Shown in pieces: positions 57,089-61,946 of a DNA stretch of 64,000 nt (the first letter of the stretch is position 1; every line of letters begins with the position of its first letter). This DNA is from an uncultured archaeon (GTDB lineage: Archaea > Asgardarchaeota > Lokiarchaeia > Sigyniarchaeales > SOKP01). The DNA is taken from assembly GCA_964508365.1 (NCBI GenBank), contig CAZDTP010000018.1, positions 113-64,112 of the forward strand. Direction: 5' to 3'. Under the pieces are notes generated by a model. It did not search any database. It was not told where the DNA came from and was given only the letters and a program-made list of their open reading frames with translations. The translations under genes and the position numbers were made by a program.

Positions 57089-58236
57089 GAAATCCAGCGA
57101 TTTTAGAATCTAGAGCACATACATTTTATGTGAAAAAAAAAGGAATCCCTAAAGGATGTCAACAATGTTTAAAGGGTGCCAAAGCAGTATTATTTCTTAA
57201 TGGAATCTGCCAGAATCCAAAACATTGTTGGTGGTATTGTCCGATTTCTGAAAAACGAAAAGGTAAGAAAGATACCTATATAAACGAGATTCAAATATCT
57301 TCTAAAGAGCAGATACTACATGAAATCAAAGCTATTAATGCGAAAGGCATGAGTATTACAGGTGGAGAGCCATTATTTGAACCCAACTTAAAAAAAACGC
57401 TAGAATATATCAAATTCATCAAAGAAAATAAAGGAAAAAAGTTCCATATTCACCTTTACACCAACGGTCTTAATTTTAACGAAGAAATTGCGGCAAAACT
57501 CGCTCGAGCAGGGTTAGACGAAATTAGATTCAACCCTGCAAAAGAAAATTGGAATGTGATTAAATACGCATTAAACAAGGGTATGTCCGTAGGAGCTGAA
57601 GTTCCTGTGATTCCAGATGTGGAATATATAGAAAATTTGAAAAAATTCATCTTTTATGTGAATAAAATAGGTGCAGATTTTATTAATTTGAATGAATTTG
57701 AATATACTTTGCCAAATAGCCAAAACCTTAAGGACCGAAATTTTAAGTTGGAAGCAGGTACAATAGCATCTGTAAAGAATAGTAAAGAATGTGCAATTAA
57801 ACTCATACATGATATCCTTCCATATGTTTCAATAAAAATTCATTTTTGTACGATTATAGCTAAGGATTATTGGCAATTGAGAGAAAGATATTTAAGACGT
57901 GCAAAAACTATTAAATTACCATACGAAGAAATCACGAGAGATGGTTTGCTATTATACGCTCAAATAGAAGGCGAGAAGAAGGACATTAAAGCGTTTTATA
58001 ATCTTTTATTAAATGAGCTAAAAATCCCTCAAAACTTCTTATCTTACGAAATAACTTATATTAAATTACCCATAAAGTTTGCTTTGAAAGAATTTTTTAT
58101 GGATTTACTAATTCAACATAATTTAAAAGGATATATAATAGAAATGATACCGTTTCGAGAAGAAATATATCAACAAATAACGGAAAAAACACCTATAAGG
58201 TTATTCAAAGAAGAGATGGGACTAAATGATTATTGA
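57085..58236 (+). CDS. Radical-SAM-like protein
   Basis: Cys cluster CQNPKHCWWYCP, SITGGEPL, TIM-barrel-like length. The Cys spacing is non-canonical (C-x5-C-x3-C). Confidence 0.55.
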   Translation: MRNPAILESRAHTFYVKKKGIPKGCQQCLKGAKAVLFLNGICQNPKHCWWYCPISEKRKGKKDTYINEIQISSKEQILHEIKAINAKGMSITGGEPLFEPNLKKTLEYIKFIKENKGKKFHIHLYTNGLNFNEEIAAKLARAGLDEIRFNPAKENWNVIKYALNKGMSVGAEVPVIPDVEYIENLKKFIFYVNKIGADFINLNEFEYTLPNSQNLKDRNFKLEAGTIASVKNSKECAIKLIHDILPYVSIKIHFCTIIAKDYWQLRERYLRRAKTIKLPYEEITRDGLLLYAQIEGEKKDIKAFYNLLLNELKIPQNFLSYEITYIKLPIKFALKEFFMDLLIQHNLKGYIIEMIPFREEIYQQITEKTPIRLFKEEMGLNDY

Positions 58237-58672
58237 TACAGTCACTCTTAAAGATTTAGATGAAATTTACAATTTAGAAAGACAATATTTCAAGAAAGAC
58301 TCATTTTCAAAAGAATTAATTTTTAATTTGATAAAAACGAACACATTTTTTTTTAAGCTTATCGATGACGAACTATCGAATAATATTATAGGGTTCATCA
58401 TTATTATTCAAGATCGAGAAGAAAGATTAAACTTGATTAACTTTTTAATTAGAAAGGGGGAAAGAAAAAGAGGTTATGGGAGTTCTCTTTTAAGATATAC
58501 TCTGAAAAAAGTAATAGCATTAGATAAGATAAAAACAATTATATTGAATGTGAACTCTAAAAATAAAGCTGCTATAAGCTTGTATCAAAAATTTAATTTT
58601 CAGATTGTCGAAAGAATAGAAAATTATTATCGGGACAAGCAAAGCGCTTACTTAATGATATTGAACGTTTAA
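58226..58672 (+). CDS. rimI: GNAT N-acetyltransferase (RimI/Ard1-like)
   Basis: R..G.G..LL acetyl-CoA motif (RKRGYGSSLL) and N..A..LY.K.GF. Overlaps the previous gene by 11 nt. Confidence 0.7.
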   Translation: MIIDTVTLKDLDEIYNLERQYFKKDSFSKELIFNLIKTNTFFFKLIDDELSNNIIGFIIIIQDREERLNLINFLIRKGERKRGYGSSLLRYTLKKVIALDKIKTIILNVNSKNKAAISLYQKFNFQIVERIENYYRDKQSAYLMILNV

Positions 58673-58782
58673 TCATTTTCTAAAAACCAAGACTTATAAA
58701 TAAATTCTATTATAAATTTTGTATAGAAAGCATTGATAATGTGTTCAAAAAAAGGAAACAAAAATAAAAGTATTGAGTGATT

Positions 58783-58938
58783 ATGACGCCCTTAGGTACC
58801 GAATTAAAAGATGAAATTAAAAAAGGTGTTACTCTCCAAAAGGTTGACGAGGAAGATATGAAAAAACGTGAAGAAGAGAAAAAGAAGCGAATGGAAGAAT
58901 TAGAAAAAGTTAAAGAAGCCTTAGGAGCAAAAGATTAA
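58783..58938 (+). CDS. 51-aa WH2 / beta-thymosin-like mini-protein (candidate actin-monomer binder)
   Basis: Own translation: MTPLGTELKDEIKKGVTLQKVDEEDMKKREEEKKKRMEELEKVKEALGAKD. Residues 7-20, LKDEIKKGVTLQKV, fit the WH2 pattern L-x3-I-x2-G-x2-L-[KRQ]-K-[VT]. Same strand as its neighbours. Below the ORF-track cut-off. Confidence 0.45.
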   Translation: MTPLGTELKDEIKKGVTLQKVDEEDMKKREEEKKKRMEELEKVKEALGAKD

Positions 58939-59085
58939 ATTTTATCTGTTTTTTGTATTTATTATTTTTTTTCTTTATTCTTAGTTTAACTCACAAATCC
59001 CCAAGCAAAATGCAATTTAAGTGTGTTAAACTTAATTGTTAGTGTTAATTATAAAAATTTAGGAATTTTGAGTTTGAAGTGCCTA

Positions 59086-60159
59086 ATGAAAATTCTGGAT
59101 ATTGATAAGAAGGAGGAAACCATTTCATTAAGAACCGAAGATTTAAACGATCTATGGACACTCTATAATATTATTGCTAAAAATGACCACGTAACGGCAA
59201 GAACAAACCGTAGAATAGTTTTAAAAGAAGGTTCTAAAGGAGAAAGAAAACAAATGAAATTGAAAATAAATGTCGATTCTATTTCATTCCACGAGTTTTC
59301 AAATCGGTTAAGAGTAAAAGGAACTATCTTAGAAGGACCAGAGGATTTTGTTTCGTATGGGACATATCACACAATTAATATAGAACTAGGACTAAAATTA
59401 ACAATTAAAAAACCTAAGTGGTTAAATAGTGAGATTAAACGCCTTAGCAAATCGCCTAGATTTCAAACTGATTTTGTCATGCTAATAATAGCGATCGAAA
59501 CAGGGTTAGCAACAATCGCTCTTATTACAAATTATAGCCATAATAGAATCGCTACTGTAAAAAAAAACATCCCAGGCAAAAGATACGAGCAATCCTATCG
59601 AAACAAAGCTTATGAAGAATTCTATAGTGATATTAGCAACATAATTAAAGAAAAAACAGACAGTATAAACTTAAAAATCATTATAATATGTGGCCCTGGG
59701 AGCACAAAGGATCACTTAACACAATATATTAAAGAAAAAGCCCAAATAACGAGGTTACCGAAAATCGTAAACATTCAAGCTAGCTCTGGAACTGAAAGTG
59801 CAATCCTGGAAACTCTTAAATCAAAAGAACTCAAACTTCTAAAGAAAAATGTTAAAATCTTCCATGAAACTGAGAAAATTGAGGAAATTTTTCAGTTGTT
59901 TAGCACCAATTCAGATTTAATTGCAATTGGATTCGATGAAATCTCGAAAGCTATTGAAAAAAGAGCTGTAAAGGAACTTTTTTGTGCAGATATTCTTATA
60001 AGAGGTGCATCAAAAAAACAGAAATTAAGAATAGAACAATTATTAAACGGTGTAGAATCTTTAGGTGGAGAAATTCATATTTTAAGTAGCGAACACCCAA
60101 CAGGGCAACAAATAATTGATTTGGGATCTATCGTTGCTATTTTAAGATTTAAAATTTAA
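59086..60159 (+). CDS. pelA: Pelota (Dom34 homolog), mRNA surveillance/ribosome rescue
   Basis: MKILDIDKKEETISLRTEDLNDLWTLYNII is a typical Pelota N-terminus, followed by eRF1-like central and C-terminal domains. Start set at ATG 59086 rather than the upstream GTG of the track. Confidence 0.85.
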   Translation: MKILDIDKKEETISLRTEDLNDLWTLYNIIAKNDHVTARTNRRIVLKEGSKGERKQMKLKINVDSISFHEFSNRLRVKGTILEGPEDFVSYGTYHTINIELGLKLTIKKPKWLNSEIKRLSKSPRFQTDFVMLIIAIETGLATIALITNYSHNRIATVKKNIPGKRYEQSYRNKAYEEFYSDISNIIKEKTDSINLKIIIICGPGSTKDHLTQYIKEKAQITRLPKIVNIQASSGTESAILETLKSKELKLLKKNVKIFHETEKIEEIFQLFSTNSDLIAIGFDEISKAIEKRAVKELFCADILIRGASKKQKLRIEQLLNGVESLGGEIHILSSEHPTGQQIIDLGSIVAILRFKI

Positions 60160-61313: not shown

Positions 61314-61946
61314 TTGATTATAATGAGCCCAATTATAACGCATGAAGATGAATTTGATTTAGCAAGTATGGAAAAAGAATTAGTGACCCAAATAAGGAAA
61401 CTAGCAAAATCTCAGAGTACTTTAATTGATTCTCAAAAAAAATACGCCGAAAATTTAAAAAAAACAACACTTACTCGAGAAATGTTAAACAGAACATTTA
61501 GAGACGTATTGAAACACATGCAGACTCTAGTACGAGAGAAACGATCAAATATTAAAGAGGAAGAAGTGAAAATATTTCAAGATATTATCCACAAAAACGA
61601 TGGATACATAGAAGTTAACAACAAATATATTGATTCGATTAAGGATCTCGCCGTAAAAAAAGACTATTTAGTCGAAAAAAAATATGAATTTGCTTCGGCA
61701 TTAAGCGAAGTAGCAAACAAAAGAAACATAGTAATCAAAAAAGCATTATCTGTTGAGAAAAAAAAAAACGATTTAATCGAAGGAGAAAAAATGAAAATTT
61801 TAGAGTCCGAATTGAACGATTCGCAAAGAGACTTTGATCGTGCTCGAGATATTTTAATGAAAAAATTAGACCAATTTTTACAGATTAAGAACGAAGTAGA
61901 TGAATTGTGGGTAAATTTGAAAAATAGCGTTGACAAAGCAAGCTGA
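61314..61946 (+). CDS. All-helical coiled-coil protein (about 210 aa), hypothetical
   Basis: Heptad-rich K/E sequence in three long helical segments. No enzymatic motif. Confidence 0.55.
   Translation: MIIMSPIITHEDEFDLASMEKELVTQIRKLAKSQSTLIDSQKKYAENLKKTTLTREMLNRTFRDVLKHMQTLVREKRSNIKEEEVKIFQDIIHKNDGYIEVNNKYIDSIKDLAVKKDYLVEKKYEFASALSEVANKRNIVIKKALSVEKKKNDLIEGEKMKILESELNDSQRDFDRARDILMKKLDQFLQIKNEVDELWVNLKNSVDKAS

Follow-up and report, generated by a model that had tools for sequence, protein, structure and literature searches.

The actin-monomer binders closest to the gene considered here are well described. WH2 domains (Pfam PF02205; N-WASP, WAVE, MIM, WIP) are, in eukaryotes, embedded in large proteins and combine the spaced hydrophobic residues of a short helix with a Gly three positions before a Leu, an L-x-K-V segment and acidic residues thereafter. 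The beta-thymosins (PF01290; thymosin beta-4, ciboulot, tetrathymosin, actobindin) are highly charged modules of ~45–50 residues in which an N-terminal helix, an LKKT-like segment and a C-terminal helix follow one another. Several WH2-type units in one flexible chain make up the tandem-WH2 nucleators (Spire, Cordon-bleu, Vibrio VopL/VopF). In Asgard archaea, actin regulation seems to rely mainly on profilins and gelsolin-family proteins (bioRxiv 10.1101/2025.11.30.690169), and the WH2-like motif was found in the literature on these organisms only as a four-residue linker element of two-domain gelsolins (LVDV in Loki2DGel, LRRV in Thor, LKHV in Heim), which lies crystallographically on actin (PMC9433394, PMC7444086, bioRxiv 10.1101/2025.11.30.690169). 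We focus here on a 51-residue mini-protein encoded at positions 58783-58938 (+ strand) of a 64,000-nucleotide stretch of DNA from an uncultured archaeon of the Lokiarchaeia (the window), and on its repeated and fused relatives. These may represent a WH2/beta-thymosin-like actin-monomer-binding module, a reading to which we give a probability of roughly 0.5.

A conserved gene for a 51-residue protein

The open reading frame (ORF) runs from an ATG through 51 codons to its stop (58783..58938, +, stop included) and encodes exactly the peptide quoted in a first-pass annotation of the window, which had rightly placed it between a rimI-like gene and pelota on the same strand. Frames 5′ of the Met are not conserved, which supports this ATG as the start. 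Of 5.8 billion proteins searched with a word index, 219 were homologues at E ≤ 1, nearly all of them 48–51 residues long, with 71–94% identity among the best 120 of the 219. Across the searches, homologues of this format measure 48–58 residues. A match is present in all 24 same-genus genomes searched, and each of the 20 same-genus loci studied closely keeps an intact frame of 50–53 residues and the gene order radical-SAM, RimI, ORF, pelota, radical-SAM. Across 19 orthologues the mean proportion of synonymous differences (pS) is 0.58, near saturation, against 0.08 for nonsynonymous differences (pN), and the median ratio of nonsynonymous to synonymous rates (dN/dS) is 0.15, so that the comparison with relatives proposed in the first-pass annotation comes out in favour of a functional frame. 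The housekeeping genes on either side are less conserved than the mini-protein, which at locus L013, for example, is 82% identical, compared with 64% for pelota and 44% for RimI.

In the cultured Promethearchaeum syntrophicum MK-D1, the orthologue is DSAG12_00453 (QEE14640.1), which is transcribed at 347 reads per kilobase per million (RPKM), comparable with values of 501 for an actin, 390 for a gelsolin and 243 for the profilin-like protein, and which stands in the same table with no COG, arCOG or KEGG assignment and no flag as a eukaryotic signature protein (PMC7015854 Supplementary Table 3). Database names of family members are either 'hypothetical protein' or, in some JGI entries, a spurious 'multidrug resistance efflux pump'. 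That the ORF is no gene at all, a frame left open by chance in AT-rich intergenic sequence, would fit its shortness, a Lys/Glu-rich composition of the kind that A-rich DNA would give, its absence from the first-stage gene list and the lack of cover on it in one public metatranscriptome run; that run, however, is uninformative, sharing few words with the window and covering only low-complexity T-rich pieces 3′ of the ORF and, with one 151-nt contig, pelota. This explanation is refuted by the comparative data, namely the 219 homologues, the frame kept intact in every relative examined, the excess of synonymous over nonsynonymous change, the conserved promoter-like and terminator-like elements and the annotated and transcribed orthologue in MK-D1. 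The ORF is a genuine gene, under strong conservation and not described before.

A WH2-like core in a beta-thymosin-like format

The WH2-like core, LKDEIKKGVTLQKV, spans residues 8–21 (58804..58845, +), one residue further along than the 7–20 originally assigned to it, and consists of L8 and I12 on a helix, G15 and the segment L18-Q-K-V21. Among close relatives, I12, G15, V16, L18, K20, R29, R36, E39, K42, A46 and G48 are invariant and V21 is nearly so; with distant orthologues added, K20, R36 and K42 are still invariant. The family consensus, L-x3-I-x2-G-x2-L-x-K-V-D-x2-E, is in the WH2 register. Position by position, counting from L18 as 0 in 50 diverse single-unit representatives (50% identity) and 70 units of multi-unit proteins, −10 and −6 are hydrophobic in 60–83%, −3 is Gly in 70% of singles and 34% of units, 0 is Leu in 98–100%, +2 is Lys in 82% of singles and 50% of units, and +3 is Val or Ile in ~88%, with Asp at +4 and Glu or Asp at +7. 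Further on, +15 is Lys or Arg and +18 is Arg, each in 94–98%, and +22, +25 and +29 are hydrophobic in 87–100%. Distant orthologues carry the cores ELKKAIEAGASLKKV and repeat units the cores LLEEISQAPQLKKV. The signature of a WH2 sequence, an amphipathic helix of two to three turns with spaced hydrophobic residues, a small residue and an LKK[TV]-type motif, is thus found in the family, with caveats at +1 and at −9, the second hydrophobic position of the helix, which is Lys in the free mini-proteins.

On the family alignment, AlphaFold2 predicts a helix at residues 6–13, an extended stretch at 14–22 that carries G-V-T-L-Q-K-V-D and a charged amphipathic helix at 23–49 (58849..58929, +), with a mean predicted local distance difference test (pLDDT) score of 82.8 overall and ~90 in the last helix. 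Foldseek found nothing in the PDB resembling this 51-residue model at E ≤ 10, which its small size would lead one to expect. The predicted short helix followed by an extended segment is what the unit shares with WH2 domains, and the family consensus DeLkkeIkkGvkLkkVdeeE aligns with LLDQIRQGIQLKKVEQ and MLNAIRRGVKLKKT; the unit differs in running on into a conserved helix of ~27 residues that WH2 domains lack, and in occurring as a free-standing protein.

With its 51 residues in a helix, extended segment, helix order, the mini-protein has the free-standing format of ~40–50 residues typical of a beta-thymosin, so that the resemblance in size and charge first noted extends to predicted structure, and, like beta-thymosins, it has relatives in which one unit is repeated in tandem. 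The MK-D1 and Harpocratesius orthologues (EIEEHDKSKMAKV, EIEAMNKEKLKKV) have a longer spacing from helix to motif, as does thymosin beta-4 (EIEKFDKSKLKKT). Helix 23–49 has a loose counterpart in the C-terminal helix of beta-thymosins, but is much longer and has its own Arg/Lys pattern, in which R29, R36, E39 and K42, together with the hydrophobic M37, L40, V43 and L47, are conserved in a family-specific manner.

Comparison with known structures and families

At the level of the motif, the likeness to WH2 and beta-thymosins is, as judged from profile comparisons, real and specific. HMMER searches of 177,635 distinct PDB sequences with a profile of close relatives returned first a tandem-WH2 construct of N-WASP on actin (3m3n_W, E 0.0054) and second a MIM WH2 peptide on actin (2d1k_C, E 0.29), with 2vcp_D also listed; these E-values are marginal, and the best of them comes from a single chain with three near-identical engineered repeats. 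The WH2 alignments cover profile positions 2–25, that is, the invariant core. A more diverse profile, with the consensus given above, again placed 3m3n_W first (E 0.008). In the ESM Atlas, which compares language-model features and is alignment-free, the nearest named cluster of the window protein is Thymosin PF01290 at 0.88, and that of a 49%-identical orthologue is the same at 0.87, with 185 shared features and the label "Thymosin beta-4 family"; both scores lie below the tool's line of 0.9 and are thus a lead only.

Two other candidate relationships were considered and rejected. DUF3006 matches 22 of 32 members, with a best E of 0.0048 and 13 bits against a cut-off of 32.3, and is regarded as a compositional match of a K/E-rich helix. 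The archaeal EF-1beta 1gh8_A recurs in the PDB searches at E ~0.5 and was considered because of the nearby pelota gene; the alignment is insignificant and covers 23 residues only, leaving the rest of the protein unmatched. Separately, a scan of a 1.84-billion library with the family profile matched P0156, a 762-residue protein on a JGI metagenome contig of 2448 bases, at E 4e-9 through the WH2-like N-terminal half of the profile only. P0156 is of eukaryote type, with FHA, PP1-binding and two SAP domains and ~14 repeats of TPxRNxIKAGxxL[RK], and it scores 18.1 bits, sub-threshold, on Pfam WH2.

Tandem arrays and domain fusions

Longer relatives surfaced in profile searches only; a word-based search with the window peptide found none. 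A sister family, to which MK-D1 and Harpocratesius belong, has proteins of 479–497 residues, an MK-D1 one measuring 479, that consist of 9–11 tandem units of ~45 residues, such as TLLEEISQAPQLKKVDEDDLKKYQKEKQ and VLEELMKNIGKGVTLFKIDPKELEAHEKAKRERL, each of which is homologous to nearly the whole mini-protein (full-sequence E ~1e-24, small database). In the window's own genome, the single match is the free mini-protein, and no array was found there. The arrays resemble the tandem-WH2 nucleators in carrying several WH2-type units in one flexible chain, 9–11 in the arrays and 1–4 in the profilin fusions described below; they differ in their ~45-residue period with helical linkers, rather than short or proline-rich ones, and in having no KIND, dimerization or other accessory domains. 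Relative to the repeated beta-thymosins of eukaryotes, with 2–4 units, they are long. Nucleation by the Loki arrays is purely hypothetical.

AlphaFold2 finds no compact fold for an array protein (predicted template-modelling score 0.16), but rather helices of ~36 residues joined by loops of 8–9 residues at the L-x-K-[VI]-D cores. Such strings of helices would also be in keeping with a mainly structural unit, a charged single alpha-helix or a coiled-coil or hairpin spacer that self-associates or separates domains, the mini-protein then being a solubilizing or scaffolding protein. The very high Lys/Glu/Arg content, the long and confident helix 23–49, the PDB matches of the C-terminal half (designed helical proteins and other K/E-rich helices) and the placement of the unit between or after other domains in multidomain proteins point the same way. 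We nevertheless regard this as improbable, as a generic spacer would not hold Gly, Leu, Lys and Arg invariant over ~50% divergence, the low dN/dS and a conservation above that of pelota argue for a specific interface, and the predictions show no packed repeat fold.

A second architecture also favours the actin-binding reading. Some 45 clusters of proteins of 250–265 residues, reaching down to 48% identity, combine an N-terminal Asgard profilin with one unit and a conserved domain of ~50 residues, and variants carry two units (P0168) or four (P0151). MHA1996756.1 is an example with four units. The profilin domain of one such fusion (L067) matches PDB 5zza_P at E 2e-9, as well as 5yed, 5zzb and 7pbh; the Pfam Profilin model scores the fusions at a sub-threshold 19–22 bits, while two clusters have a precomputed PF00235 annotation. 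The register of the units does not vary among the fusions, in which F−7, F−6, G−3, L0, D+4, R+18, M+19 and E+21 are invariant. The last ~50 residues of the fusions (e.g. L067:1301-1450, −) form a domain of the pattern F-x-T-D-Y-I-Y-D-D-F-x-L-L-x-V-K, which is present in all and has no Pfam match.

Joining the unit to profilin also invites another explanation, in which the unit binds profilin itself and recruits or regulates it, in a lineage whose profilins reportedly do not use polyproline, the fusions being intramolecular auto-regulatory pairs and the arrays platforms that collect profilin–actin. Profilin and WH2 domains occupy overlapping sites on one actin monomer, as known from actin–profilin and actin–WH2 complexes. 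A WH2-type unit and a profilin in one chain would thus compete for actin, which makes another target conceivable, and the recurrence of profilin fusions with one, two and four units can be counted on the same side, as can the divergence of archaeal profilins in polyproline binding (PMC10907219). Against this, the core fits the WH2 register of actin binding and no known profilin ligand, and there is a precedent in Leishmania major, whose profilin carries in the same chain a WH2-like segment that adds to actin binding (PMC10907219). That segment is an insertion of ~20 residues inside the profilin fold, whereas the Loki units are appended C-terminally and followed by the ~50-residue domain. A profilin ligand seems a poor prospect to us.

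Units also occur with other partners. In L068:871-1710 (+), L069:1289-2239 (−), P0170 and P0189, the unit follows a leucine-rich repeat (LRR) or a Ras/Roc-type GTPase, often with a segment resembling a ribbon-helix-helix (RHH) domain behind it, an architecture of Roco-like signalling type. In the small proteins L071:1531-1887 (−), L072:1259-1660 (+) and L074:1264-1668 (+), an N-terminal RHH domain (NikA/CopG-like) is followed by one unit, and at L074 a gene for an ArsA/ParA-like ATPase lies upstream. A ParR-like arrangement, with the RHH domain binding DNA and the C-terminal helix docking on an actin-like filament, was considered for these RHH proteins and rejected, as the neighbours are inconsistent and include no actin-like gene.

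Possible actin-monomer binding and its alternatives

Actin binding is the most economical reading of the family: it explains at once why the core is in the WH2 register, why the format resembles a thymosin, why units form arrays and why fusion to profilin recurs. The binding steps and effects on polymerization that we infer are as follows. A small cytoplasmic protein of one ~45-residue module would bind a monomer of the organism's actin (Lokiactin), with the N-terminal amphipathic helix (L8, I12, V16) docking in the hydrophobic cleft of the barbed face and the extended G15-V-T-L18-Q-K20-V21 running along the actin surface in the manner of LKKT/V. The C-terminal amphipathic helix would add another point of contact, higher up on the monomer already bound, as in thymosin-like sequestration, or else on a different partner. 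The single-unit protein might thus buffer or deliver monomers, while the ~490-residue proteins of 9–11 units and the profilin fusions with one to four units would gather several and could nucleate or feed filaments. If the family does bind actin monomers, its members are candidates for nucleating Lokiactin filaments and for buffering the monomer pool.

The window's genome encodes six to seven actin-family genes (contigs C22, C60, C90, C23, C1, C15 and C103). The copy on C60 is the most similar to the canonical Lokiactin of relatives and is cut by the contig end; the intact copy on C22 is a paralogue common to only a few genomes. Directly downstream of that paralogue, C22 carries a gene for a 415-residue protein (L021:214-1458, −) with an N-terminus like Loki profilin (PDB 5yed, E 8.8e-6) and a middle helix-turn-helix of TrmB type (Pfam, 45 bits), which could be an actin-linked transcription regulator.

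A number of results weigh against the actin-binding reading. First of all, the Pfam models are silent: WH2 PF02205, with its gathering threshold of 23.1 bits, gives no match at E ≤ 10 to the window protein, 32 close relatives, the MK-D1 orthologue or the 479-residue array protein, and Thymosin PF01290 gives none at E ≤ 10 in any member scanned, an outcome that the first-pass annotation had itself counted against its proposal. Only 2 of 42 isolated units give WH2 matches, all sub-threshold, the best family member being an array fragment, P0172 (RLLEEIQQAPTLKKVNEQE), at 16.8 bits (E 0.0055), and a repeat-unit profile retrieves no WH2 chain from the PDB. Membership of Pfam WH2 or Thymosin is thus not demonstrated, and the likeness to WH2 originally put forward stands on its register, on the PDB matches to N-WASP and MIM and on the Atlas placement, while failing at the level of the Pfam models. 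Second, a strict WH2-like pattern occurs five times in the six-frame translation of the genome, compared with 2.0 ± 1.9 in shuffled sequence, and is not beyond chance. The early caveat that the motif might be fortuitous therefore applies to the bare motif; it loses force once the family is considered, since the motif is given meaning by the coincidence of its positions with the invariant columns. Third, +1 is rarely basic, Gln, Ala and Glu being commoner than Lys, and the core of the profilin fusions is L-E-K-P-D with an invariant Glu. Fourth, conservation is highest in the C-terminal helix, which WH2 domains lack; what had been taken for a loose acidic/basic continuation of the motif is in fact the most conserved part of the protein (R29, R36, K42 and the hydrophobic stripe). 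Fifth, LRR, Ras/Roc-type GTPase and RHH domains, to which the unit is also fused, have no link to actin. Finally, in the loci examined the neighbours are translation and housekeeping genes and never actin genes, and the sample of 301 genomes described below yielded no members of the family from other Asgard lineages possessing actin.

With respect to the third point, the WH2-like linkers of Loki gelsolins contact actin, and the non-basic LVDV core still lies on it (PMC9433394), so that non-basic four-residue cores can work in this lineage. Unlike the unit described here, those linker elements consist of four residues with no amphipathic helix of their own and do not form an autonomous module, and they have no detectable sequence relationship to the mini-protein family.

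What keeps other explanations alive is the conservation of the C-terminal helix, the acidic residue at +1, the fusions to non-actin domains and the failure of the Pfam tests. In the chief of these, the unit is a lineage-specific helical module that folds upon binding a non-actin partner, for instance a signalling, DNA-associated or translation-associated protein, and its WH2 likeness is a coincidence in Lys/Glu-rich sequence. The silence of both Pfam models and the commonness of the bare motif suit this well, as does the concentration of the strongest conservation C-terminally, at the Lys/Arg of +15, the Arg of +18 and the hydrophobic +22, +25 and +29. The LRR, GTPase and RHH fusions likewise point towards such a partner, the RHH proteins with a C-terminal unit having an antitoxin- or adaptor-type look, and so does the RimI/pelota synteny within the genus. 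On the other hand, profilin, to which the unit is fused recurrently and in conserved form, is one of very few proteins of these genomes that bind actin monomers; two differently built profiles both rank WH2 chains at the top of their PDB matches; and no named family in the ESM Atlas lies nearer than Thymosin. Furthermore, pelota is no longer a syntenic neighbour in MK-D1, Harpocratesius and family f4, and the gene appears to have its own promoter and terminator; the gene neighbourhood therefore says little. On balance we consider a non-actin partner unlikely, though a good deal less so than a profilin ligand or a spacer. Even with such a partner, the family would be a highly conserved, expressed and unannotated module, combined in turn with profilin, GTPase, LRR and RHH domains in an archaeal lineage that serves as a model for eukaryogenesis.

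Distribution and origin

When 301 genomes of the phylum were scanned with the profile, matches appeared in 63 of the 68 that belong to the window's family and in all 7 from the MK-D1 family; a first genome scan had also matched two further families of the same order. In the rest of the 301-genome sample, only three long frames matched, all weakly (E 7e-5 to 8e-4). The family is small: HMMER, run exhaustively over 1.84 billion representatives, found just 69 clusters at E ≤ 0.001. Among the genomes searched it is confined to one order, and we treat it as order-restricted; the Asgard framing originally given to the protein thus holds for the organism, while the family itself is not Asgard-wide. 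A wider spread was suggested by the NCBI submitter names (Thor-, Hod- and Hermodarchaeota) of identical or near-identical proteins; these names conflict with the genome-based scan, which places the same proteins in the window's family, and the suggestion was rejected.

A family restricted to a single order is more readily explained by a lineage-specific origin. As beta-thymosins are, to our knowledge, mostly metazoan, common descent with the Loki unit is unlikely. Our full-text literature searches found no free-standing archaeal WH2- or thymosin-like protein, tandem array or profilin fusion, in agreement with the initial view that a free-standing WH2 protein was not an established part of the archaeal repertoire. 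It is tempting to propose that WH2-style control of actin arose in archaea, as a third class of regulator beside profilins and gelsolins and in three formats: a 51-residue buffer, nucleator arrays of 9–11 units, and profilin fusions that couple monomer delivery to assembly. The eukaryotic motif might have its root here, but the narrow distribution makes an independent invention on the same actin surface more likely. We hold this larger proposal tentatively, as somewhat less probable than monomer binding itself. If the family does grip actin monomers, the WH2/thymosin hold on the barbed face of actin would be no eukaryotic monopoly.

Gene neighbourhood and flanking signals

At the window locus the 5′ neighbour of the mini-protein gene is a GNAT/RimI-like acetyltransferase gene (58226-58672, +) and the 3′ neighbour is pelota, with eRF1 domains 1–3 (59086-60159, +), and radical-SAM genes flank this pair. 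Some 80–90 nt 5′ of the start codon lies ACTTATAAATAAA (58692..58704, +), a box of BRE/TATA type that is kept in all aligned same-genus loci, the most divergent included, while the surrounding intergenic DNA varies; by what is known of archaeal TATA boxes, it is promoter-like. A Shine-Dalgarno-like element, TTGAGTGAT (58773..58781, +), stands directly 5′ of the ATG, and in most orthologous loci TTGAG is found at a constant distance from the start, which suggests a role in translation initiation. The stop codon is followed by an oligo-T-rich tract (58940..58979, +), conserved in position in orthologous loci and likely an archaeal intrinsic terminator that separates the mini-protein gene from pelota. 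With the conserved box, the TTGAG and the oligo-T tract, the gene looks like its own transcription unit and not a member of a pelota operon. Further along the window, and matching no Pfam family at E ≤ 0.001, positions 61314-61946 (+) hold a 210-residue Lys/Glu-rich ORF whose product is probably a coiled coil.

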